The position numbers were made by a program, and so were the translations under genes. Positions 5,020 to 24,525 of a stretch of 41,678 nucleotides of DNA are shown in pieces. This stretch comes from Sulfurimonadaceae bacterium (GTDB lineage: Bacteria > Campylobacterota > Campylobacteria > Campylobacterales > Sulfurimonadaceae), in contig JBFESZ010000004.1 in NCBI GenBank assembly GCA_041548245.1, positions 1 through 41,678 on the forward strand, written 5' to 3'. Under the pieces are notes generated by a model that was given only the letters and a program-made list of their open reading frames with translations, was not told where the DNA came from and searched no databases. Positions within the stretch are counted from its first letter, which is position 1, and every line of letters starts with the position of its first letter.

Positions 5020-6729
5020 TTACGAAGAACAACTTACGTGCGATACTCCAGCTATATCAAACAAGTGGGAAGGTTTTTCTTTATAGTATTTTTCCTCTAT
5101 CTCTTCAGACTGTTCATCGTATGGATGGGTCATTATTTCCTCTAATTCCCTAATGAGCGTGTAATCACCTTTTTCGGCTGCTTTGTAGGCAGGCACGAGA
5201 AACCATTCGCGCAGTGTGTATTTTGGATTGGTCCTTTTCATTTGCTGTGACAGCTCTTCTTTGGCTTCAGGTGTAGCTGCATTGATAAGTGATTGCCATT
5301 TCTCCAGCCACTCTGTCCATCTGCTTCGGAGTTTTTCATCATAAATAGCATCACCGTAAAAACTTTTTACCAGTGGTTCAATGTTTTCAGGCAAGCCAGA
5401 GAGTTCACGGAAGAAGATGGTGTAATCGACCGATGTCTCTATCATCAGTACGACCAGTTCATTAAAAAGTTCTGCATTAAAACTCTCTAGTCCAAGTTTG
5501 GATGCCCACATCTTGATCATACGCGCCTGCATAAGCTTGGAAAAGCCACTTCTTATCTCATCAAGCTGTTCTAGCTCCTTCTCATACGAATGAAGCAGGG
5601 GAAGCAAAGCCGTGCAAAACATATGAAAGTTTCGCTCTGCAGCTATTGGCTGATTGAGAAATGAGAAGTGAACGCCACCGCCCGTCCACGGCTGATATCT
5701 GGGATCAAACATATCGATAAAGCCAAATGGACCGTAATCAAGGGTAAAGCCTCCCAAGGCTGTGTTGTCACTGTTGAAGTTCCCCTGGCAGTAACCTACA
5801 CGAATCCAGTTTGCAACTAAAGATGTAAGACGGGAGCGAAACTCACGTGCAAGTAAGATCACCTTTTGCTCGATAGGCAGGTTTTTATCGATGACATCGC
5901 TGTATTCACGATCAATAATATGCAAGACGATCTTCTCGAGCTCTTCCATCGCTTTTGGATGTTCGTTTTTACGGGCACGACGACCGAAAAGTTCCAGTTG
6001 ACCTACTCGAAGAAAAGAGGGAGCAACCCGTGTTGTGATCGCCACATCTTCTTCTATCATTACTTCAGGGTCTCTGGAATAGGAACCGTTTAAAAACCAT
6101 GGGCGTTTTACTTTTTCTGTTTTAGAGGTGTACAGACTTAAAGAACGAGATGTTGGAATGCCCAGGGCATGCATATGCTCCTGTGCTAAAAACTCTCGGA
6201 TACTCGACCGTAAGACAGCTCGACCGTCGGCACCACGGCAGTAGGGTGTCCGGCCACCGCCTTTGAGCTGCATCTCCCAGCGTTTTCCCTTGATGACGGC
6301 TTCTAGGATGGAGACAGCACGACCATCACCATAGCCATTACCTGTCTTAAAGGGGCATTGATCGTAATATTCGGTACCATAGATAGAAAGTGCATATCCC
6401 GTTGCCCAACCATGCTTACGTAAAGGCTCTGATAGTTGAGAGGTATCTCCTGAAAACATTCGGATAAAATCTTCCGACTCTGCCAAGCTGTCGGCAAAGC
6501 CCAGTTCGTTAAAAAAGGTTTTACTGTGTATGATATATTCAGGATCCTTGATGGGCGTTGGGTTTACGGGGACATAGTGGCCGCTGAAGACTTGTCGCGG
6601 AAAATGGTCAACACCGTCTGCTGTTGCATCAGGATCACTATGGAGTGTCTCCATAAGTGAATAATCAGCCAATGTCGCGAGATCATCGAGTGTTTCTATC
6701 ATTTCAGAATTTTTCTCTTTCTCTTTCAT
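5020..6729 (-). CDS. selO: SelO/YdiU family protein adenylyltransferase, long type
   Basis: [56 protein letters not shown]-terminal SCSS. Confidence 0.92.
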
Positions 6730-6910: not shown

Positions 6911-7816
6911 TTAGATGGAATGAGTATCTTTTTTTGTACCCACAAGCCAGTAAGCAATCGCTAGGCCTACTATCACACCACCAATCGTGAGTAAATCATT
7001 TGCCTTGTCCGGTGAGAGAGAATAGATGAGTATCTTACGAATCAGTGCGGCCATAGCCAACATGATAAATGCACCAATCGCAAAGCCTTTCCCTTGAAGA
7101 TGATGTATCTCTTCATGAATCAGTTCAATGGCCGCCCATAAGACCAAAAGACTTCCTAGGACTGTTAAAATGCCTTTTTCGATACCTATATCTGAGAAGA
7201 AAAGAAGATAGATGTCATATCCAAACAGGCCAATGGCAAAAAAAGCAACTAATGCCAAAGCACTTGCTAAAAAAAAGTTGACGTAGGAGTTGAACTTTTT
7301 GAGGCTTGAAAGGATGCTTTTTTCAACTTTTGAAAGTGATAAGAATTTACTGAGCTCTTCTTCTCTATAAGAACTTGTCAAGACATCAAGATTCATATCA
7401 ATGATCTTTTCAATCGCTTTGATTTCTTTTACATGTTGGTCTTTGTCTGTATAAGTGTTTTCAAGACTACGTAAGGCAAAGGTTCTGACAAAATTAAATG
7501 CAGAGTTTACATAGTGTGTGGGAAGACCAATTTTGACATGAATCTCACCAATTTTGTAAAGGTACATAAAGTATTGAAAATCATAGGTTCCGTTAAACAG
7601 GTGAATGAACCATAATTTTATTTTCTGTTTATGGCGTGAGATGATCTTTTTATCTTTTAGAAATTGAGCGGTGTCGCCAAGTCCCCAAATATGATCATAG
7701 AATTCATCTACAAATTGTTCAGATAAAGCTTGCATTGTGGGCTGTAGGTTCTGAAGTAATTGGGCTTCTTCTTCTGAAAACCTATAATCTTGTTTAAATG
7801 TTTTATAGTCTTGCAT
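6911..7816 (-). CDS. protoglobin (globin-coupled sensor) domain fused to a PsiE-like transmembrane domain
   Basis: N-terminal globin FVDEFYDHI ... IGEIHVKIGLPTHYV ... DMNLDVL; four C-terminal hydrophobic helices with ALIRKIL (PsiE-like). Confidence 0.85.
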   Translation of the reverse strand: MQDYKTFKQDYRFSEEEAQLLQNLQPTMQALSEQFVDEFYDHIWGLGDTAQFLKDKKIISRHKQKIKLWFIHLFNGTYDFQYFMYLYKIGEIHVKIGLPTHYVNSAFNFVRTFALRSLENTYTDKDQHVKEIKAIEKIIDMNLDVLTSSYREEELSKFLSLSKVEKSILSSLKKFNSYVNFFLASALALVAFFAIGLFGYDIYLLFFSDIGIEKGILTVLGSLLVLWAAIELIHEEIHHLQGKGFAIGAFIMLAMAALIRKILIYSLSPDKANDLLTIGGVIVGLAIAYWLVGTKKDTHSI

Positions 7817-9117: not shown

Positions 9118-11379
9118 ATGAGTGAGCATAAAGATTTTTTACGTACTATAGTAGAAAAGGATCTACAATCGGGCAAGTATAAAGGGGTCGTGACACGTTT
9201 TCCACCCGAGCCTAATGGATTTCCACATATCGGCCACGCTAAATCAATATGTATCAATTTTGGTATTGCCAAAGACTATCACGGGTACTGTCATCTCAGA
9301 ATGGACGATACCAACCCGACCACAGAAGACACGCAATATGTTGAGGCCTTAAAAGATGCCGTAAAATGGCTTGGATTTGAGTGGGAAGGCAGTGTTCGTT
9401 TTACCTCGGACTATTTTCAAAAACTGTATGAATATGCGCTGGACCTTATCAAAATGGGCAAGGCCTACGTGGACAGTATAGATGAAGACCAGATGCGGGA
9501 ATTTCGCGGTACGGTGACTGAACCGGGTAAACGCAGCCAGTATGCCGAACGCTCTATCGAAGAGAACCTTGACCTGTTTGAACGTATGAAGAAGGGTGAG
9601 TTTAAAGACGGCGAACATGTCTTAAGGGCAAAGATCGATATGAGTGCGGCCAATATGAAGATGCGTGATCCGCTTTTATATCGTATCCGACATGCCCATC
9701 ACTTTAGAACAGGTGACGCCTGGGCAATCTATCCGATGTATGATTTTGCTCACTGTCTTTCTGACTATATCGAAGGAATATCACACTCAATATGTACCTT
9801 GGAGTTTGAAAACAACCGTGATATTTATGATTGGATATTAGACACGCTTGGCTTGACACCGGCCCGTCCTTATCAGCATGAGTTCGCACGTCTTGACATT
9901 AACTACACGGTGATGAGTAAAAGAAAGCTTTTACAGCTAGTCAATGAAAAGAGAGTGAACGGCTGGGATGATCCGCGTATGCCAACCATCGCTGGCTATA
10001 GACGCAGAGGCTATACACCCGAGTCAATTGTCAATTTTTGTGACTCCATTGGTATCGCCAAAGCCAACTCGATGGTGGATGTGGCTCAGCTGGAGTTTTG
10101 CATCAGAGATGATCTGAACACCAAAGTACCACGTGTGATGTGTGTGCTTGAGCCACTCAAAGTGACGATTGAAAACTATGAAGGCAGTGAAGAGCTTGAT
10201 GCGAGTTACTATCCTGAAGATGTACCCAAAGAGGGTTCACGAAAGATTCCTTTTTCAAAAGAGATCTATATCGATCGTGCGGACTTTGCAGAAAACCCTC
10301 CTCCGGGATATTACCGTCTGACGCCAGAGCAGCCTGTACGGCTTAAACATGCTTATATCATCACCTGTAAAGAGGTAATCAAAGATGATAAGGGAGAGAT
10401 CATCGAGATTATCGCAGAGTATAACCCAGAGTCAAAAAGCGGATCGGATACCAGTGGGATCAAAGTCAAAAGCGCGATACAGTGGGTGGACGCTAAAGAA
10501 GCGAAGGAGGTTGAGGTAAGAATTTATGACAGACTCTTTAAAGATGAATCGCCAGAGGGGCTGGAGGATCTCAATCCTGATTCACTTAAAGTGATCAGAA
10601 ATGCCCTTATCGAACCTGCTGTGATCACGCAGAAGCCTGATGTAAGATTTCAGTTTGAAAGAGAAGGCTACTTTTTTGCCGAGCCTGTGGATTACACCGA
10701 TGAAAAGCCTGTGTTTAACAAGATTGTAGGTCTGAAAGACTCCTGGGGCAAAAAGAAAAAAGAGGATAACAGAAGATCTAATACAGAACGAAATCCTTTA
10801 GTTAAAAAGGAGCAGATCGATGGTGAAGTCGCTCCTATGAATGAAACAGAGCAAACACGTTTTGACAAGTACATCAATGAGGATAAGCTTAACAGTGAGG
10901 TGGCTAATACCCTTGCTCGTGATGAGAAGCTTTCCTCTTTTTATGAAGAAGCATTGGCTGTTGAATATACTCCTGTGCATCTTGCTAACATCGTAGCGAA
11001 TGAAGTGGCACGTGAGTTAAAAGAAAACGAGATCAGTGAGTTAAAGTTTAGTCCTAAAGAGATTGCAGAACTTGTGAAAATGGTAGATGAGGAAAAAATC
11101 TCAAACAAAATAGCCAAACAGGTCTTTGAAGAGATGGTGGCATCCGGTGAATCTCCTGAAAAAATTGTAGAAGCAAAAGGTCTTATGCAGATCAGTGACC
11201 CTGCTGTTATTGAAGCTGTTATTGATGAGGTAATAAAAAATAATCCAGAGAATGTGGCTAAATTCAAAGCAGGAAATCAAAAGCTATTAGGCTTCTTTGT
11301 GGGGCAAGTCCTCAAAAATACCGGCGGAAAAGCCAACCCTAAAATGGTTAATGAGCTCGTAGAGAAGAGATTGAAATAA
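9118..11379 (+). CDS. glnS: glutamine--tRNA ligase with C-terminal YqeY/GatB-like domain
   Basis: TRFPPEPNG.PHIGH, RMDDTNP, YPMYDFAH, VMSKR, GWDDPRMPT, FQFEREGYF; C-terminal GLMQISD...GFFVGQV...GKANP. Confidence 0.96.
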   Translation: MSEHKDFLRTIVEKDLQSGKYKGVVTRFPPEPNGFPHIGHAKSICINFGIAKDYHGYCHLRMDDTNPTTEDTQYVEALKDAVKWLGFEWEGSVRFTSDYFQKLYEYALDLIKMGKAYVDSIDEDQMREFRGTVTEPGKRSQYAERSIEENLDLFERMKKGEFKDGEHVLRAKIDMSAANMKMRDPLLYRIRHAHHFRTGDAWAIYPMYDFAHCLSDYIEGISHSICTLEFENNRDIYDWILDTLGLTPARPYQHEFARLDINYTVMSKRKLLQLVNEKRVNGWDDPRMPTIAGYRRRGYTPESIVNFCDSIGIAKANSMVDVAQLEFCIRDDLNTKVPRVMCVLEPLKVTIENYEGSEELDASYYPEDVPKEGSRKIPFSKEIYIDRADFAENPPPGYYRLTPEQPVRLKHAYIITCKEVIKDDKGEIIEIIAEYNPESKSGSDTSGIKVKSAIQWVDAKEAKEVEVRIYDRLFKDESPEGLEDLNPDSLKVIRNALIEPAVITQKPDVRFQFEREGYFFAEPVDYTDEKPVFNKIVGLKDSWGKKKKEDNRRSNTERNPLVKKEQIDGEVAPMNETEQTRFDKYINEDKLNSEVANTLARDEKLSSFYEEALAVEYTPVHLANIVANEVARELKENEISELKFSPKEIAELVKMVDEEKISNKIAKQVFEEMVASGESPEKIVEAKGLMQISDPAVIEAVIDEVIKNNPENVAKFKAGNQKLLGFFVGQVLKNTGGKANPKMVNELVEKRLK

Positions 11380-12655: not shown

Positions 12656-13087
12656 TCAGTCTTTCACGGGATCCATTTTTCTTGCAAGGTAATCAGCAGT
12701 CGGCGCATCTACGGATTTGACATGCATAACAATCCATTCGGGTGTTTTGCGTACAAAATTGATGATTTTATGGATATCACCATACTCTTTCCAGCTTTTG
12801 GTAGCGTAAGCAAGATCTGCCAAAAACATATCGTGAGCTAACTTATGCATCTCGTATGATGGGAAATTATATTCCTTCATCAATTGTTCTTCGTTGGCGA
12901 AATGCTCATGAACATGTTCGATGTACTCATTGAGTTTTTTCTCTAGCTCTTCTTGTGTCGCATTCCCTTCTTCACATCGGTCAGCAAGTTTGTCAATCTC
13001 ATTAAGAATTTTAATCTCGTTTTCGTGCGTTTGCTGCATCTGCTCAATGCTCATATATTCTACTTGTTCAGCGTAAATCAATGCCAT
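12656..13087 (-). CDS. single-domain bacteriohemerythrin 1
   Basis: Ligands H..HFANEE..HKLAH..HVKSVD. True start is ATG 13087 with AAGGA SD; the ORF-track TTG at 13150 lies inside the promoter. Confidence 0.9.
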   Translation of the reverse strand: MALIYAEQVEYMSIEQMQQTHENEIKILNEIDKLADRCEEGNATQEELEKKLNEYIEHVHEHFANEEQLMKEYNFPSYEMHKLAHDMFLADLAYATKSWKEYGDIHKIINFVRKTPEWIVMHVKSVDAPTADYLARKMDPVKD

Positions 13088-13136
13088 TGTAATTTTCCTT
13101 TTATGTGTATTATAAAATGAAATCAAGAATAAAGTA

Positions 13137-13150
13137 TTGATGAATGTCAA
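13137..13150 (-). promoter_or_regulatory. FNR/CRP-family box centred at about -41.5 of the hemerythrin 1 promoter
   Basis: TTGAT-GAAT-GTCAA (9/10 to TTGAT-N4-ATCAA); minus-strand TATAAT at 13114-13109. Confidence 0.75.
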
Positions 13151-13891: not shown

Positions 13892-14308
13892 TCAGGAGTC
13901 TTCTCTTGTAGCCGAACCTGTTTGTAAATAGGATGCCATCGCATTGTCCATTGTTTCAACATGACTGATGAGCCAAGGTGTTAAATTACCTTTGATGTAA
14001 GCGTGAATGGCATTGATATCTTGATGTTGCTCAAAATACTTTATGATTGATTTGAGCTCCCGTAGATGTCGGTCATGCTCATTTTTATGCATTTCAAAGG
14101 CCGGAAAATCAGCCTCTTGCATTATTCCTTCTTCGTCGGAAAAATGCATGATCGTATGTTCCAATAATGCATTCAGTTTTTCGCTAACAGCTTCTATCTC
14201 ATGATTGATCGCAGCATTATCAAGTCTGTTTATAATTAGTATCTCTTCCAAATGCGTGTCATTCATACTTGGCAATGCAACCATAGTAAGTTGTTCTTGT
14301 GTGATCAA
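13892..14308 (-). CDS. single-domain bacteriohemerythrin 2
   Basis: MNDTH..HFSDEE..HKNEH..HVETMD; TTG start with AAGGA SD. Confidence 0.9.
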   Translation of the reverse strand: MITQEQLTMVALPSMNDTHLEEILIINRLDNAAINHEIEAVSEKLNALLEHTIMHFSDEEGIMQEADFPAFEMHKNEHDRHLRELKSIIKYFEQHQDINAIHAYIKGNLTPWLISHVETMDNAMASYLQTGSATREDS

Positions 14309-15292: not shown

Positions 15293-15724
15293 TCAAGTGT
15301 GTGATTGTTGTTTAAAAAACATGGCAGTGACCGTATCCATTGTTTGAATATGATTAGTTAACCACATTGGAATTTCTTGGGATATGTACTCTTTGATGGG
15401 AATAATCTCACGCTCTTTCTTCCATTTCCTATACACAGACTCCATCTTTTCTAATGCTTTTTCATGCTCTGCTTTATGCATAGGATAAGGGGGAAAGTTC
15501 AGTTCGAGCATTTTTTGTTCTTCACCTTCAAAGTGATCAAGCGTATGCTCATACCAAGTTTCGAACTTCATATCAATATTGACAGCGTTCTCTTCACTCA
15601 TATCTTTGGTATATTGTACGATCAGATCATACAGATCATTAATAATATCCACATCTTCTATATGTACATCGTTCATAAAGTCCATAGCGACTTGCGGTAC
15701 TTTTTCTTTTGAAATCAAGCTCAT
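15293..15724 (-). CDS. single-domain bacteriohemerythrin 3
   Basis: MNDVH..HFEGEE..HKAEH..HIQTMD; AAGGAG SD. Confidence 0.9.
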   Translation of the reverse strand: MSLISKEKVPQVAMDFMNDVHIEDVDIINDLYDLIVQYTKDMSEENAVNIDMKFETWYEHTLDHFEGEEQKMLELNFPPYPMHKAEHEKALEKMESVYRKWKKEREIIPIKEYISQEIPMWLTNHIQTMDTVTAMFFKQQSHT

Positions 15725-15936: not shown

Positions 15937-17376
15937 ATGAATTTAGATAATTTAACACTTCAGACCCCCTATCTGTCACTTGATGATGAGTTCTACGATT
16001 TAATCGATCCCATACCGCTTGAGAACCCCTATTTGATAAGCTTTAATCCAAGTGCTGCAAAATTGATTGATCTTGATAGTGAGACCCATAACGATCCTTT
16101 ACTGGTTGAACTGCTAAACGGTTGTTTTATTCCGAAGGAGTCACGTCCCTTTGCCATGTGCTATGCAGGGCATCAATTTGGCCATTATAATCCTTGGTTA
16201 GGTGATGGCAGGGTATGTAATCTGGGAAGTGTGTCTGGCTGGAATTTACAGCTCAAAGGTAGTGGTGAGACGATGTACTCACGTATGGCTGATGGTAGGG
16301 CAGCTGTACGTTCATCCATTCGGGAGTATCTGATGAGTGAAGCGATGCATCATCTTGGTATTCCCACAACACGAGCTCTTGGGATCATCGGTTCAAAGAC
16401 AAAAATCATTCGTCAACAGATAGAACATGCCGCTATTATTATGCGTATGTCTACGAGTTGGGTCCGCTTTGGTACCTTTGAATACTTTTATTACAGAGGT
16501 GAACACCAAAAGCTGCAGACATTAGCTGAATATGTCATTGCCGAGTCGTATCCGCACTTGACAAACGATGATGACCGCTTTTTTAAGATGTTTTGCGAAG
16601 TTGTTGAGTGTACAGCTACCTTGATTGCAAAGTGGCAGGGAATAGGTTTTTGCCACGGGGTCATGAATACCGATAATATGTCTATAGCCGGTCTTACCAT
16701 CGATTACGGACCTTATGCTATGCTTGATGACTTTAATTACAGTTATGTGTGCAATCATACAGATCGTTTGGGCCGTTACAGTTATGGAGACCAGCCTAAT
16801 ATCTCCTATTGGAATCTTACTATGCTTTCCAAGGCACTTTCTCCGATCATCTCTAAAGATAGAATGCAGAAAAAACTTGATGAGTTCGGTGCGTTTATCT
16901 ACCCGAATGCCTATGTCGATGTCATGCGTAAGAAGCTGGGTCTTGTCGAAAAGTTTGAAGATGACGTTGAATTGATAACAGAACTTGTCGGAACGTTACA
17001 GGATGCCTACGTCGATCATACGCTTTTTTATCGGACGTTGAGTCGTTATGACGGTGACAGAACCCCTTTGTATGATATCGTCATGGAACCAGTCATAATG
17101 GATAACTGGCTGAAACTGTATGACGAACGATTGTCAAAAGAGCCTCGTACACAAATCGAACGCCAAAAAGCAATGTTAAAATGCAATCCTAAATATGTTT
17201 TGAAAAACTATATGTTGCAAGAGGCAATAGTGAAGGCAGAACACGGTGACTTTTCGATGGTCGAGACACTTTTACATATTGCTGCGCATCCTTTTGATGA
17301 GCTGCCAGAGTTTGAACATTTTGCAGGTGACACCCCTGAAGAGTACAAAAATATAGGGCTTTCCTGTTCATCATAA
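15937..17376 (+). CDS. selO: SelO/YdiU family protein adenylyltransferase, canonical E. coli-like type
   Basis: YAGHQFG, LGDGR, QLKGSG.T.YSR.ADGRA, RSSIREYL.SEAM, HGVMNTDN, IDYGPY, CNHTD, NPKY, C-terminal SCSS. Confidence 0.95.
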   Translation: MNLDNLTLQTPYLSLDDEFYDLIDPIPLENPYLISFNPSAAKLIDLDSETHNDPLLVELLNGCFIPKESRPFAMCYAGHQFGHYNPWLGDGRVCNLGSVSGWNLQLKGSGETMYSRMADGRAAVRSSIREYLMSEAMHHLGIPTTRALGIIGSKTKIIRQQIEHAAIIMRMSTSWVRFGTFEYFYYRGEHQKLQTLAEYVIAESYPHLTNDDDRFFKMFCEVVECTATLIAKWQGIGFCHGVMNTDNMSIAGLTIDYGPYAMLDDFNYSYVCNHTDRLGRYSYGDQPNISYWNLTMLSKALSPIISKDRMQKKLDEFGAFIYPNAYVDVMRKKLGLVEKFEDDVELITELVGTLQDAYVDHTLFYRTLSRYDGDRTPLYDIVMEPVIMDNWLKLYDERLSKEPRTQIERQKAMLKCNPKYVLKNYMLQEAIVKAEHGDFSMVETLLHIAAHPFDELPEFEHFAGDTPEEYKNIGLSCSS

Positions 17377-19371: not shown

Positions 19372-19767
19372 ATGTTTATTGAAGCACATGAGGTACAAAA
19401 AGTCACCAATGAAGTAATGAATATGCTACATGATGATGAACTAGAAGTGATCAATAGTTTTTATGATGCCGTCAAAGCTAAGGATGTAGAGAAAGTGGAT
19501 GAACTTTTTCCAGGTTTTTTAGCTGAAATAGAGACGCACTTTAAAACAGAAGAAGATATGATGGAGCAGAGTGCTTATTCGGATGCGCAAATGCATAAAA
19601 GTGATCACGACGTTATACGAAAAAAGCTAGAAAAGTTTCATAAACGCTGGGAAGTACTCAAGGGCCCGACAGAACTGCTTGGATTTTTAGAAAAAGATTT
19701 TAAAAAGTGGTACACCCAGCATGTTTCAAAATGGGATGCACAGGCTGCTTTACATATTGGTGGCTAA
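19372..19767 (+). CDS. single-domain bacteriohemerythrin 4
   Basis: MNMLH..HFKTEE..HKSDH..HVSKWD; TATAAT and GGAG upstream. Confidence 0.88.
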   Translation: MFIEAHEVQKVTNEVMNMLHDDELEVINSFYDAVKAKDVEKVDELFPGFLAEIETHFKTEEDMMEQSAYSDAQMHKSDHDVIRKKLEKFHKRWEVLKGPTELLGFLEKDFKKWYTQHVSKWDAQAALHIGG

Positions 19768-20721: not shown

Positions 20722-20746
20722 AGAAGAGAAGGGGTGGTTCTCTTCT
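20722..20746 (-). terminator. hairpin downstream of the AAA gene
   Basis: AGAAGAGAA-(7 nt)-TTCTCTTCT. Confidence 0.5.
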
Positions 20747-20779: not shown

Positions 20780-23404
20780 TTATCTAGCAATTACTGTTTC
20801 AAGTTCATCGGTATAGATGATCTCTTTTTCAAGAAGAAGTTTTGATAGTTTATGGATCGTATCCCAGTGTCTATCGACTAGCTCAGTAACCCGTTGTTCA
20901 CCTTCAAGCATCCATCTTTCCAAAGCGGCATCGATTTTTTCATGGTAATGCTCGGTGTCTTTATTATTGAAAGACTTGTTTTGTGCATCCATAATTCCGT
21001 TGATATTGATATATCCGACTTCTTTATCCATCCCATAGTGTGCTATGGCAACGTAGGCATCACGTGTGGCTTGTTGCAGGTCATTTGAAGCACCTGAATC
21101 CATACCTTCTATCTCACCAAAGTGTTTTATCTGGGCTGCTCTCCCTGCCAGTGATACAACGATCCTGTCTTTAAAGTCTTTGACTGTCATATTCTCTTGG
21201 ACATCACTGTAGTTATGTGAGATGAAATGCTCATTGTTGTCTTTTGGTGTCAGGCTGACATGTTCGATATTGACATGTGGCATCAAAGTTCTGGAGATAA
21301 CAGCACGTCCTGCCTCATATACGGCGGTCTCTTCAAACATCTGCTCAAGCGAGAGGTAGGATTGTCTCTCTCCATATTTGATCATATTGATCTGATCAAT
21401 TAAAATCTCTTGAGTGATTGCATGCAGACCATGCCTTAGGCAGTAAAAGGATGCCTCTTTACCCAACATTTCGAGTTGAGACCCTGTAAATCCTGTGGTA
21501 TACATCAACAGTTTTTTCATGTCAAATGTACCCTCGGTAGGTTTCTCATTGATGATTTTATCCAAGAAGTATTGTCTTGCATCCTTATCAAGATTGTTGA
21601 TTTCTATATGGATCTCTACACGTCCTGGTCTGATGATTGCCGGATCGATGTTTTCTTTATAATTGGTTGCCGCTATGACGAAGATGTCCTCACCTTTTCT
21701 ACCGGCAAAACCATCCATTTCTGATAATAGTTTGTTGATAGGTACTTCTCTGCCGTTTTCACCATCACGTTTTCCTATAGTGTCGATCTCATCAATAAAA
21801 ATGATGGCCGGTGCATAGGCTTTTGCCTTAGTAAAAATAAGCTTTGTCTTTTCAGGTTTGAGCAGTTCAAGACCGGTTGTCGAGATAAATGGAAGTTCTG
21901 CCTCTTTCGCAAAGGCTTTAGCCAGCATCGTCTTACCTGTCCCCGGAGGTCCATACAGCAGCATACCTTTAGGTGGATTGATATTAAAACTCTCCAAAAG
22001 TTTTGGCTCTTTAAAAAAGTTAATTACTTCGCCCAGTCTCTGTTTAGCTTTATGGTGGCCTGCAATGTCATTAAATGAGACATTTGGGATATCAAAGACC
22101 AGCCCATCTTCACTAAAGTCTTTGATTCTGACCACTTGAGAAAACTTACATGAGTTTACCTTGTAGGTAATGATACCGTTCTTCTCAGTGATAGCATCGT
22201 CGATATGAAGGGTAGTGTTTTTTCTAAAGACTTCTCTTACGAGTGTCTCATTTTCAATGAGTGGAGCGACCCTCTCCTTTAAGAATGCTACAGACTCTTT
22301 AGAGAGTGATACTTTGATCTGTTTAAAATTCATCAGCGGCTTGTCTGATTCCTGCATAAACTGAGTGATCCTGTTGAAGAAGTGCGCACTTACTTTCTCT
22401 TTAAGGCGTCTTGCATCAAGTTCTGGGGCAAAGTTAAGCATCTGCATAGTTAAAAAGTTATCGAAGTTTTTGGCAACTACAAATTCAATTTTATACCGAT
22501 CATAAAACTCATCCTTAAAGTTTAGGAAGACTTTTTTGGATATTTTTTCAAAAGCGTCATATTCGAGTTTATTAAAGAGGACAATGTTGGCTTTGGAGAA
22601 TCTGGAAACAAGCTCAGGTACGATAGCTTCTTGTACGCCACCGCTTCTGCTGTCTCTTTTGGTTTCCCTCTTGATCGCTTCAAGGATCATTGATTCGGCT
22701 TGGATGTAGTCTTTTTTTACCAGGTCTTTGAATCTGTAGTCAAGATAAAGTTCTTTTCCCACGCTGGTTGTGATGATAAAGATAGTCTCCGTAAAATCGA
22801 CCAGATAATTTGCGTTTTCATCGTTGTAGATAATGTCGGGATCTTCGTTACACGGTTCATCGGTTATCTTGTCCCAACCACATGCATCACGCATTTTACC
22901 GCCTTCAAAGATGGAAAAAAGGTTGTTCTGAATGGTGTTGTCACACTTCTCAAAAGCGTCAAGTACGATGACAGACTTAGGGTTTCTATGAACAAAACCC
23001 GTTAACTGACCGACACCATAGCCTTTCCAACCGGCAGGGTAACCATAGAGCTCGCCTCCGTTTTGTTGATGATACTGTGTCATGTCAAACTTCATGATCT
23101 TGTATTTTGGTAAATGTTTAGCCATCAGTTCGGCAAGAAAGGTTTTACCGGTAGCAGGAGAACCAAGGAAAAGGTAGGTCGCTTTAGGTCCACTTTCGTC
23201 TTTAACAGAGGTTTTCATACTGTTGGCTACGATATTGATTGCTTGTTCCTGTCCGAAAAGCTCTTTGGATATCTCTTCTTTGAACTGTTTTACAAACTTT
23301 ATATTATCTTGTGCTTCGGTTAGGGCTTCTTCATCCCACTCGCCTGAATCAAGCTTTTTATGTTTTTCAATATTTGCTTTAACTAATGCTTCTGTTTCTG
23401 TCAT
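20780..23404 (-). CDS. soluble double-AAA+ protein: ClpA/B D2-like domain + FtsH-like AAA + inactive M41 peptidase domain
   Basis: GQEQA, GSPATGKT, FDM.QY, G.PAGW.GY, VDF; then F.DIAG, PKG.LLYGPPGTGKT, IFIDEID, EMDGF, AATN, DPA..RPGR; AVYEAGRAV, LAGRAA, GASNDL. No TM segments. Confidence 0.9.
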   Translation of the reverse strand: MTETEALVKANIEKHKKLDSGEWDEEALTEAQDNIKFVKQFKEEISKELFGQEQAINIVANSMKTSVKDESGPKATYLFLGSPATGKTFLAELMAKHLPKYKIMKFDMTQYHQQNGGELYGYPAGWKGYGVGQLTGFVHRNPKSVIVLDAFEKCDNTIQNNLFSIFEGGKMRDACGWDKITDEPCNEDPDIIYNDENANYLVDFTETIFIITTSVGKELYLDYRFKDLVKKDYIQAESMILEAIKRETKRDSRSGGVQEAIVPELVSRFSKANIVLFNKLEYDAFEKISKKVFLNFKDEFYDRYKIEFVVAKNFDNFLTMQMLNFAPELDARRLKEKVSAHFFNRITQFMQESDKPLMNFKQIKVSLSKESVAFLKERVAPLIENETLVREVFRKNTTLHIDDAITEKNGIITYKVNSCKFSQVVRIKDFSEDGLVFDIPNVSFNDIAGHHKAKQRLGEVINFFKEPKLLESFNINPPKGMLLYGPPGTGKTMLAKAFAKEAELPFISTTGLELLKPEKTKLIFTKAKAYAPAIIFIDEIDTIGKRDGENGREVPINKLLSEMDGFAGRKGEDIFVIAATNYKENIDPAIIRPGRVEIHIEINNLDKDARQYFLDKIINEKPTEGTFDMKKLLMYTTGFTGSQLEMLGKEASFYCLRHGLHAITQEILIDQINMIKYGERQSYLSLEQMFEETAVYEAGRAVISRTLMPHVNIEHVSLTPKDNNEHFISHNYSDVQENMTVKDFKDRIVVSLAGRAAQIKHFGEIEGMDSGASNDLQQATRDAYVAIAHYGMDKEVGYININGIMDAQNKSFNNKDTEHYHEKIDAALERWMLEGEQRVTELVDRHWDTIHKLSKLLLEKEIIYTDELETVIAR

Positions 23405-23612
23405 ATTCTACTCTTGATAGTTTTGTGATGCTCTATTATGGATTATTAGGGGAATTGTAACTTTTCTATCTTAATTATCAAGTATCACGTATAACAATAA
23501 AAAAATATTTTAGAAAGATGAAAGTAGCCGAGGATAAAAGAGATGACTGGAAGTCATAGGTTTACCTCTATAGTACTACTTAAGCTTTGTTAAATATCTA
23601 TATGTATTGTAA

Positions 23613-24002: not shown

Positions 24003-24368
24003 TTATCGTTTTTTGCTATCGGCAATGCGTTTGAGCATGGCATCAAGAGTGCCGGTTGATCGTACTTCTACGACTGCTGATACGACTGCATGCAAGGCAA
24101 CATATCGTAGGTATGTATCAAGTGCATCACAGCCGCTTTCTTTCATGTTTTCTTCAATTTTTGATTTCTGTGAGGGTGTAACTTTAAATCCAAGCACTAT
24201 GGACGGTTCTTCTGTTGATAAGCCAGCAGAGGTTAGGTTGAAGGAAGCCGTTTTGAGAGCAACGACTTTTAAATAGGCGGGTATATTATCAAATCCATTC
24301 TCAGCCGCTCTTAAATCTATGGTCTCTTTTTGAGACGGTGTTACTTTAAAGTGTATATCCACATCCAT
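24003..24368 (-). CDS. tandem ribbon-helix-helix-like DNA-binding protein
   Basis: Internal repeat FKVTPSQK..I......G......YL..VAL twice; start ATG 24368 after AAGGA. Confidence 0.7.
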   Translation of the reverse strand: MDVDIHFKVTPSQKETIDLRAAENGFDNIPAYLKVVALKTASFNLTSAGLSTEEPSIVLGFKVTPSQKSKIEENMKESGCDALDTYLRYVALHAVVSAVVEVRSTGTLDAMLKRIADSKKR

Positions 24369-24525
24369 TAGTCTGTTTATCCTTGAAAGTTTCGTGCAAT
24401 GGTATGCTAAATTCACTTAAAAGGCTATTGTAATGCTTAATAGGATCTGTAAGGTCAAGGGTTCCAAGCAAGAAGATAGAGAGAGTAATATGATAGAATT
24501 TTCATATTATATGTATTGAGGGATT

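Follow-up and report, generated by a model that had tools for sequence, protein, structure and literature searches.

What does a protein do when it joins an Hsp100-type AAA+ module to an FtsH-type AAA+ module and an M41 peptidase fold, yet lacks the hydrolysis residues of the first, the pore loop of the second and the zinc ligands of the third? Such a protein, 874 residues long, is encoded on the minus strand of a 41,678-nucleotide stretch of DNA from a Sulfurimonadaceae bacterium (GenBank assembly GCA_041548245.1, contig JBFESZ010000004.1, positions 1 to 41,678), which we refer to as the window. An original prediction, made from the letters of the sequence, had described it as a soluble chimera of ClpB D2 and FtsH whose two rings carry complementary inactivating substitutions. 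Our analysis suggests that it is a domesticated, non-proteolytic two-module ATPase, derived from a family of soluble proteases, in which the FtsH-type module (D2) would be the only hydrolysing ring and the Hsp100-type module (D1) would not hydrolyse ATP. We put the probability of this reading at about 65%.

Domain architecture and residue states

Re-translation from the window coordinates placed every motif named in the original prediction at its expected site (Table 1). Pfam profiles matched AAA_2 at residues 73–270 (84.2 bits, cut-off 27), AAA at residues 481–603 (141.8 bits) and Peptidase_M41 at residues 691–871 (89.4 bits, cut-off 29.9), with AAA_lid_3 at residues 628–666 falling below its cut-off (24.1 against 27.2 bits). 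The NCBIfam model FtsH_fam (TIGR01241) covered residues 440–868 at 299.8 bits, under its cut-off of 600, and the NCBIfam ClpB and ClpA matches were confined to residues 32–176 and stayed far under theirs (93.3 against 1232 bits and 106.3 against 993 bits); NBD1, the M-domain and Clp_N are absent according to Pfam. An AlphaFold2 model of the whole chain, built on an 89-row alignment, reached a mean predicted local distance difference test score (pLDDT) of 83.9 and a predicted template modelling score (pTM) of 0.66, and a separate model of residues 1–435 reached 87.1 and 0.81. In a Foldseek search with the whole-chain model, no solved structure spanned the full chain (TM-score on the query at most 0.40). 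The models give the order of domains as a helical hairpin (residues 1–46), D1 (47–355), a connector without a Pfam match (356–435), D2 (436–680) and an M41-fold domain (681–874). The hairpin stands where protease-competent relatives have N-terminal extensions of 70–275 residues. The highest 19-residue Kyte–Doolittle mean of the protein is 1.09, with no segment reaching 1.6, whereas the genome's canonical FtsH, encoded on contig C29, has two hydrophobic segments that both exceed 2.2. By this measure the protein is soluble and has no membrane anchor, as originally proposed.

To describe how the functional positions vary, we used two sets of sequences. A search of 5.8 billion proteins gave 120 relatives among the matches listed; four shorter ones were dropped, and residues were counted in the remaining 116, which are at least 860 residues long and 73–100% identical, the window's own protein included (close relatives). 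In an exhaustive HMMER search against 1.84 billion cluster representatives, 150 matches were listed, of which the 66 that covered the query in full and in a single stretch were aligned (distant members).

D1 resembles the second nucleotide-binding domain (NBD2) of Hsp100 proteins. Foldseek aligned the model of residues 1–435 to the NBD2 of Thermus thermophilus ClpB with a TM-score on the target of 0.71–0.74, and ClpC1, ClpC, Skd3 and ClpA also matched; together with the AAA_2 match, this bears out the assignment of the module as ClpA/B D2-like. In AAA+ proteins, the Walker-A lysine, the arginine finger and the sensor-2 arginine bind or sense ATP across subunits, and the Walker-B glutamate and the sensor-1 asparagine activate the attacking water. 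The first group of residues is invariant in the close relatives, as is the pore-loop tryptophan (Table 1); the pore-loop position is aromatic (Tyr, Trp or Phe) in 63 of the 66 distant members. The second group is lost. Position 150, the site of the Walker-B glutamate, is serine in 69 close relatives, alanine in 38, asparagine in 9 and glutamate in none, with the preceding Asp149 present in all 116, and sister sequences read DEFEK or DEIEK here. Sensor-1 position 214 is serine in 115 close relatives and asparagine in one, and asparagine in 19 of the 20 distant members that bear the Walker-B Asp-Glu pair (DE). The original prediction was right that the sensor-1 motif is altered, and the change can now be stated as Asn to Ser, since the strand is IITSNL in sisters and IITTSV or IITTSL in the window's clade. 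Because the arginine finger equivalent to Arg268 is kept throughout this clade but in only 15 of the 46 distant members without DE (it is present in all 20 with DE), D1 does not seem to be simply dead. The pattern would fit a ring that binds ATP without hydrolysing it and whose Trp126 could still touch a polypeptide. In Hsp100 proteins, stable binding of substrate is a property of Walker-B mutants. The original suggestion that one ring grips substrate while the other hydrolyses ATP is compatible with these residues, and a D1 that acts as an ATP-bound assembly or regulatory ring would be an equally simple account of them.

D1 also has an unusual set of cysteines. The β-hairpin at residues 170–203, which we take to be the pre-sensor-1 hairpin of the HCLR clade, carries an insertion in which Cys175 and Cys185 are present in all 116 close relatives. 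At this insert, CGWC and one further cysteine downstream of it are found in the closest relatives that are protease-competent; the window's clade has Cys175, Cys185 and a new Cys154 beside Walker B. All five cysteines of the protein are conserved in 110–116 of the 116 relatives, and a metal or redox site is possible.

D2 has VAT, Cdc48 and FtsH as its sequence matches in the Protein Data Bank (PDB). The Walker-A Lys491 is present in all 116 close relatives, and Asn581, Arg592 and Arg595 of sensor 1 and the SRH (second region of homology) are invariant in the 89-row alignment. At the site of pore loop 1, comparison with the canonical FtsH of the same genome (FIEMFVGVGAARVRD) reveals a six-residue gap that takes out MFVGVG, and the HMMER alignment to VAT has an identical gap. 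The length of this segment is constant in the 116 close relatives and is shared by 59 of the 66 distant members (15 residues); the other seven have 16–24 residues there, and one of these rows, on a long branch (P0178), has an FVG-type loop. Judged by its motifs, D2 is a catalytically intact ATPase without the FVG pore loop, so that the FtsH-like assignment, the intact Walker and SRH motifs and the deletion of the FVEMFVG loop all stand.

The C-terminal half of the model matched the cytosolic regions of FtsH with TM-scores on the target of 0.74–0.87. In the M41-like domain, YEAGR replaces HEAGH and GASND is kept, as had been noted: position 696 is tyrosine in all 116 close relatives, position 700 is arginine in 114 and histidine in 2, and none has both histidines, although Glu697 is present in 110. 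The adjacent strand, TxxPRxxxLGF in relatives, has been rewritten and reads LTPKD-NNEHF here against IIPRGLAALGY in the genome's FtsH; residues 721–726 have a pLDDT below 50, the lowest confidence in the model. Both histidines are required for zinc binding in M41 peptidases (PMC8197885). From these residues, the domain would lack zinc binding by histidine, and the protein cannot be a canonical zinc protease. When three copies of residues 681–874 were folded together, the self-association score was 0.54, against 0.00 for the best of three controls, a mark that 20 of 30 proteins with structures solved as one-chain pairs attained, as did 1 of 23 solved as single chains. The trimer runs agreed in at least 78% of contacts, with a partner pLDDT of at least 77, and the predicted contacts run head to tail, with residues 764–789 (GASND included) packed against 789–808 and 738–742. 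This prediction may only reflect the likeness of the domain to solved FtsH hexamers.

Conservation and selection

Where they are named, the 116 close relatives belong to Sulfurovum or Sulfurimonas, and they are labelled 'AAA family ATPase' or 'ATP-dependent Zn protease'. The ratio of non-synonymous to synonymous substitution rates (dN/dS), estimated by the Nei–Gojobori method (NG86) on ten orthologue pairs, was 0.027–0.045 in eight pairs and not finite in the two that were saturated. In the seven closest pairs it was 0.011–0.029 for D1, 0.017–0.086 for the connector, 0.012–0.045 for D2 and 0.037–0.087 for the M41-like domain; residues 1–46 had the highest values of all regions in close pairs (0.03–0.10). 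Every region is clearly constrained, and the 'inactive' D1 most tightly.

These results bear on the possibility that a double-AAA protease gene is decaying here, which the loss of several catalytic residues would otherwise suggest. The reading frame is intact, and the same substitutions are conserved in 116 relatives that are 73–100% identical, none of which has the D1 Walker-B glutamate or both zinc-site histidines, and dN/dS is 0.027–0.045. Because of this, we do not regard the substitutions as decay, and we give that explanation almost no credence. An alignment of homologues, which the original prediction had proposed as a check, thus finds the D1 glutamate absent from every close relative and both the pore-loop deletion and the loss of the zinc site conserved.

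Origin within a soluble family of putative proteases

The protein belongs to a wider family with the same AAA_2, AAA and M41 order. Many full-length relatives align over query residues ~30–870 at 29–51% identity; most are 830–1150 residues long and carry an N-terminal extension, and the distant members begin to match the 874-residue protein at their own residue ~100–270. Their names are limited to 'AAA family ATPase' and 'ATP-dependent Zn protease'. The N-terminal extensions of nine distant members had no Pfam match. Judged by eye, the extensions of three protease-competent relatives (L062, 6001–6420; L048, 5725–5934; L049, 5659–5868) may start with a Clp_N-like repeat, for which Pfam gave no match in the relative P0121. 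A hydrophobic segment is absent from 61 of the 66 distant members, HEXXH is intact in 65, the D2 Walker-B DE is present in all 66 and the D1 Walker-B DE in 20. Because the short D2 segment is common to 59 of these 66 sequences, and 65 of the 66 have HEXXH, the deletion is ancestral. By sequence, then, the parent family is soluble, and its loss of the D2 pore loop coexists with an active-looking protease site. The nearest relatives with the ancestral deletion also have a complete D1 ATPase. This does not fit the idea that the substitutions in the two rings arose to complement each other: the D2 deletion was inherited from a family in which the protease site mostly looks active, and the window's clade differs by its D1 and M41 changes alone.

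A tree of D2 and M41 (90 rows, 440 columns, IQ-TREE quick search), rooted on the genome's own FtsH, nests the YEAGR clade (24 rows) among relatives with HEXXH and DE. The clade has a support of 100 in the Shimodaira–Hasegawa-like approximate likelihood ratio test (SH-aLRT), and its sister is P0121, which has HESGH and DE (support 97). Twenty-six sites are diagnostic of the clade: at each, one residue is fixed to at least 90% within it, and the DE group has another that is fixed to at least 70%. Among these sites are A154C and H155D, which follow the D1 Walker B; S213T and N214S at sensor 1; and H696Y, H700R, Q715H, T717S, L725E and G726H at the M41 active site and the adjacent strand. The losses at the zinc site and in D1, the rewriting of the adjacent M41 strand and the loss of the N-terminal extension all fall on the stem branch of a single clade, which was seen in no bacterial family but that of the window. 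A divergent protein of 845 residues from a Sulfurovum metagenome-assembled genome (L053, 4001–6538, plus strand) already has DAFEK and the Asn-to-Ser change, with REAAH as its zinc motif, an unremodelled PR..GF strand and EGSPD in place of GASND; as a single sequence, it suggests that the losses were stepwise.

Other relatives have degenerated in the opposite way. In those of ~800 residues (L050, 5578–7968, plus strand; L051, 5983–8385, minus strand), HEAGH is undamaged, and the degraded elements are the two Walker A motifs, the SRH arginine and sensor 1 of D2. This form occurs both in the window's own family and elsewhere in the order.

Comparison with known systems

The D2 and M41 portion aligns end to end with the cytosolic regions of FtsH (query 441–872; PDB E values of 1e-62 to 1e-60), with 29–34% identity to solved FtsH chains in Foldseek alignments, and keeps the classical AAA Walker A, Walker B and SRH as well as the M41 fold. 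It differs from FtsH in having no anchor, FVG loop or HEXXH, in a TIGR01241 score under the cut-off and in the additional Hsp100-type module in front. In the passages searched, two FtsH reviews (PMC9020784 and PMC8197885) portray FtsH as membrane-bound and do not mention a soluble double-AAA form.

The same two papers, in their accounts of the plant FtsHi proteins, describe AAA and M41 proteins with a mutated HEXXH that are retained and function as non-proteolytic ATPases, acting as pseudoprotease subunits in hetero-oligomers with FtsH12 and Ycf2 (PMC8197885, PMC9020784). The 874-residue protein is similar in that its M41 domain has been kept with HEXXH substituted and an AAA module intact, and Ycf2–FtsHi chains are among its Foldseek matches. 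In contrast, FtsHi proteins are membrane-anchored, chloroplast-located and hetero-hexameric, whereas this protein is soluble and bacterial, has two AAA modules and is not accompanied in the window's genome by an active partner from its own family. Because the tree nests the YEAGR clade within a bacterial soluble family, the loss would be independent of that in FtsHi.

D1 shares its fold, Walker A, aromatic pore loop, arginine finger and sensor-2 arginine with the NBD2 of ClpB, ClpC and ClpA (D2) and with Skd3/CLPB. Walker-B mutants of such proteins have been solved with trapped substrate, according to the entry titles 'DWB mutant ... bound to casein' and 'Skd3 E455Q'; D1, unlike them, lacks the Walker-B glutamate and the sensor-1 asparagine naturally. 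Among type-II AAA+ proteins, one module of NSF (D2), Pex1/Pex6 (D1) and p97 (D1) binds nucleotide, hydrolyses it poorly or not at all and serves assembly or regulation. The 874-residue protein likewise has two AAA modules per chain, one of them with an intact Walker A and without hydrolysis residues, but the AAA clades are different, and here it is the presumed non-hydrolysing ring that has the aromatic pore loop and the hydrolysing ring that lacks one. We know of no characterised AAA+ protein with this arrangement.

Full-text literature searches found no description of a soluble protein with AAA_2, AAA and M41, nor of a STAND protein linked to an FtsH-like module. The main text of a 2026 survey of STAND proteins (PMC13581612) contains none of the terms DUF4062, metalloprotease, AAA+, ClpB and M41, although its supplement could hold such a family. 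The protein and its parent family of soluble Hsp100-NBD2, FtsH and M41 fusions therefore appear to be undescribed, and the original prediction's statement that no characterised protein is like it agrees with these searches.

Distribution and paralogues

Close orthologues were found in 18 of 151 sampled genomes of the window's family, counting the window's own genome (G000), 10 of the 16 other members of its genus and 7 genomes from the rest of the family. In a sample of 201 genomes from the whole phylum, G000 alone had one; among 401 sampled across the order, only G000 and G316 did, both of the home family. Full-length relatives at 38–45% identity were sporadic in the order sample (5 of 401), and Clostridia also hold distant members, among the loci listed. 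One genome, G294, has both a close orthologue and a full-length relative that is 38% identical to the protein.

An M41 search of the window's 96%-complete assembly found FtsH, the gene described here, an FtsH end fragment and a membrane paralogue of 545 residues, and no second soluble member of the family. The membrane paralogue (L004, 202–1839, contig C9 of G000) is an anchored FtsH relative that retains FVQIYVGMG as its pore loop, along with the AAA motifs, and lacks HEXXH; its NCBIfam FtsH score is 448 against the cut-off of 600. The organism thus has a second FtsH-type pseudoprotease, of independent origin. A hetero-complex of the 874-residue protein with the ~800-residue protease-type form was considered for this genome and rejected, as the latter is not in the assembly.

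Gene neighbourhood

In the window, a truncated haemoglobin gene and then a response regulator gene lie downstream, and an ORF (open reading frame) for a 125-residue acidic protein of no known family and a NikA-like gene lie upstream. Seven hemerythrin-domain matches were found in the whole genome, four of them at 12.7–19.7 kb of the window (Table 1). A protoglobin–PsiE fusion gene and two SelO genes (Table 1) are also near the AAA gene, as are two receiver-GGDEF-EAL genes. The window also encodes a class-I Glu/Gln-tRNA synthetase with a C-terminal GatB/YqeY domain (9118–11379, plus strand). Promoter-like sites in the region were about as frequent as expected by shuffling (12 found, 14.2 expected), and terminator-like sites numbered 7 against 3.0 expected.

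Eleven orthologue loci had wide flanks. In six of them the next gene downstream, after a gap of 9–51 nucleotides, is a hemerythrin gene of the same strand, and a hemerythrin homologue is within the flanks of ten; a NikA-like ribbon-helix-helix gene is directly upstream in five, and recurrent neighbours are SelO, a response regulator and an MFS transporter. Shared gene order in related genomes does not count as independent evidence that the genes are functionally linked. A mobile-element origin, raised by the NikA-like gene, was set aside: GC content is unremarkable and the neighbours are syntenic chromosomal genes, integrases and tRNA genes not having been searched for.

The neighbours of the protease-competent relatives are of another kind. 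At two such loci (L047 and L048), the gene abuts those of a DUF4062 and STAND (nSTAND1/NACHT/ATPase_2) NTPase and of TrkA_N proteins; at two sister-type loci (L062 and L064), it abuts genes of NACHT/NB-ARC-type proteins of 1660 and at least 1338 residues. The neighbours at L049 had no Pfam family match. No STAND gene was found among the scanned large ORFs of the window. TrkA_N-domain proteins of 606 and 778 residues and, in L047, a zeta-toxin/AAA_33-type kinase are encoded at L047 5432–5962 and 12574–14394 (both minus strand) and L048 3392–5728 (plus strand). PADLOC matched none of the STAND and TrkA_N neighbours. The idea that the N-terminal extensions are homotypic adaptors was dropped, as BLASTP of the extensions of five protease-competent relatives against the neighbouring STAND, TrkA_N and unknown proteins gave a best E value of only 0.14.

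Table 1. Positions in the window of the gene for the 874-residue protein, of its domains and motifs, and of neighbouring features
Feature	Position	Strand	Remarks
Whole ORF, 874 residues plus stop (protein P0001)	20780..23404	−	Intact frame; 116 full-length relatives, 73–100% identity
Short N-terminal helical hairpin (residues 1–46)	23267..23404	−	Modelled helices 2–19 and 25–46; pLDDT 55–85
D1, Hsp100/ClpB-NBD2-type AAA+ module, large and small subdomains (47–355)	22340..23266	−	Pfam AAA_2; Foldseek
D1 Walker A GSPATGKT (81–88, K87)	23141..23164	−	K87 in 116/116 close relatives
D1 pore loop GYPAGWKGY (121–129, W126)	23018..23044	−	W126 in 116/116 close relatives
D1 Walker B VLDAFEK (147–153), Ala at the catalytic Glu position	22946..22966	−	Followed by clade-specific C154, D155
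D1 β-hairpin before sensor 1, with insertion (170–203)	22796..22897	−	Strands 170–178, 198–203; C175 and C185
D1 sensor-1 strand IITTSV (210–215)	22760..22777	−	Asn to Ser
D1 Arg finger region SRFS (R268)	22595..22606	−	R268 in 116/116
D1 sensor-2 region DARR (R332)	22406..22417	−	R332 in 116/116; invariant in alignment A2
Alpha/beta connector between AAA modules (356–435)	22100..22339	−	Strands 362–367, 397–408, 411–423; helices 369–394; pLDDT about 90
D2, FtsH/classical-clade AAA module with lid (436–680)	21365..22099	−	Pfam AAA; AAA_lid_3 under cut-off; FtsH_fam
D2 Walker A GPPGTGKT (485–492)	21929..21952	−	116/116 close relatives
D2 site of missing pore-1 loop, TTGLELLKPEKTK (509–521)	21842..21880	−	6-residue gap against FtsH and VAT
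D2 Walker B IFIDEID (535–541)	21782..21802	−	D538, E539 in 116/116 close and 66/66 distant
D2 sensor 1 AATNY and SRH PAIIRPGR	21620..21673	−	N581, R592, R595 in 116/116
M41-fold domain, putative pseudoprotease (681–874)	20783..21364	−	Pfam Peptidase_M41; Foldseek to FtsH
YEAGR in place of HEXXH (696–700)	21305..21319	−	HECGH opposite in the genome's own FtsH
Rewritten strand and loop HVSLTPKDNNEH (715–726)	21227..21262	−	Clade-specific Q715H, T717S, L725E, G726H
GASND, retained (771–775)	21080..21094	−	D775 in 115/116
Promoter-like site TTGATA-16-TACAAT	23454..23481	−	About 50 nt upstream of the start codon; weak
Terminator-like hairpin, 9 pairs	20722..20746	−	34 nt past the stop codon; sequence scan
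Group III truncated haemoglobin, 113 residues	20216-20557	−	Directly downstream; PDB 2IG3, E 1.7e-15; no Pfam or NCBIfam match
NikA-like protein, tandem ribbon-helix-helix in one chain	24003-24416	−	Two 'FKVTPSQK...' copies; Pfam match to the second only
Hemerythrin-domain genes (three)	12656-13150, 13892-14308, 15293-15724	−	Four with the next row, within 7 kb
Hemerythrin-domain gene (fourth)	19372-19767	+
Protoglobin domain fused to PsiE-family membrane domain	6911-7816	−
SelO (protein adenylyltransferase)	5020-6729	−	Two paralogues in a 12-kb stretch
SelO (protein adenylyltransferase)	15937-17376	+

Weighing the explanations

In the reading that we prefer, the M41-like disk and an ATP-bound, non-hydrolysing D1 ring would hold a hexamer together; D2 alone would turn over ATP and drive conformational change; and the D1 pore loops would bind client polypeptides, which could be held, remodelled or released without degradation. 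The protein would descend from proteases that work beside STAND/NACHT NTPases and would now reside in a chromosomal neighbourhood of O2- and NO-binding proteins. Several points count against this picture. In the usual view of AAA+ unfoldases, one and the same ring must combine hydrolysis with an aromatic pore loop, and no ring of this protein unites the two, so that conventional hand-over-hand threading is hard to picture. The word 'remodeller' may be wrong, and the protein may instead be a switch or a scaffold. The conserved short ELL loop of D2 could, from its sequence, still contact substrate. The glutamate of YEAGR and Asp775 are kept, which makes a residual metal site or other chemistry possible. 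The tree comes from a quick search with SH-aLRT as its only support measure, and its outgroup is one long branch; dN/dS figures are approximate, as dS is about 1–2 or more and thus near saturation; and the STAND association of the parent family rests on four of the five full-length HEXXH-type loci scanned for neighbours.

One alternative is that the protein is an inactive subunit of a mixed complex, tuning or targeting an active protease, be it the cell's FtsH or another member of the family. This is how FtsHi pseudoproteases work with their partners, the conserved interface of the M41-like domain has a predicted self-association, and G294 shows that a close orthologue and a more distant full-length relative can occur in one genome. 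The window's genome, however, has no second soluble family member; FtsH is membrane-anchored, unlike this protein, and only 29–34% identity links the protein to solved FtsH chains; and none of the ten genomes with an ~800-residue protease-type relative carries an orthologue of the 874-residue protein, at an E-value threshold of 1e-100 that may miss some. We therefore consider a mixed complex unlikely. Somewhat greater doubt attaches to the view that the protein continues to serve in conflict or defence, as a decoy, a sensor or a non-proteolytic effector, and is not a housekeeping protein. Its nearest protease-competent relatives adjoin STAND/NACHT NTPases, its distribution is patchy (present in 18 of the 151 family genomes, and in none of the other sampled families of the order), a NikA-like gene is directly upstream in five of the eleven orthologue loci, and PADLOC matched the protein to IetA models (residues 443–680 only) and to PDC-M37B and DolB (residues 25–176 only). 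Each of those matches, though, spans a single generic AAA module, and the two upstream genes had no relevant PADLOC match, the partner genes of IetAS, Dodola and PDC-M37 not having been sought beyond these two; no STAND gene was found among the scanned large ORFs of the window, the eleven orthologue loci share chromosomal neighbours, and selection is very strongly purifying with no diversifying region. A defence role seems improbable to us.

Retention of Glu697 (110 of 116) and Asp775 (115 of 116) in an M41 fold under purifying selection could also mean that the domain is a peptidase with a non-canonical site, in which Glu697 and Asp775 act with Tyr696 and Arg700 or in some other metal arrangement. 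No relative among the 116 has both histidines, however, the PRxxxLGF strand has been rewritten, and the GASND helix is part of the predicted contact between subunits, so that its conservation would need no catalysis to account for it; we hold this to be very unlikely. Our preferred reading, a non-proteolytic two-module ATPase, may be taken further into a picture that is speculative and, in our view, also unlikely in full: a STAND/NLR-associated protease of the past turned into a two-ring machine, in which the D1 tryptophan loops grip, D2 delivers the power strokes, and the five cysteines make the activity responsive to redox state or metal and tie it to the globin and hemerythrin neighbours.

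Implications

If that extended picture were true, activity would be coupled to the hemerythrin, haemoglobin and protoglobin genes, for example in holding or recycling metalloproteins damaged by O2 or NO in microaerophilic sulfur oxidisers, and the division of labour between the rings would be new to characterised AAA+ proteins. A protein that separates hydrolysis from the pore loop and is kept under strong selection would be a natural experiment on how two rings are coupled, and on the role of a Walker-B-deficient Hsp100 ring. It would also be a case of bacterial pseudoprotease evolution, independent of plant FtsHi, in which coordinated losses can be dated and go along with a change in genomic surroundings: STAND-NTPase modules before, an O2-sensing neighbourhood now. 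The parent family, finally, could represent a class of ATP-dependent protease that is new and has ties to NLR-like systems of prokaryotes.

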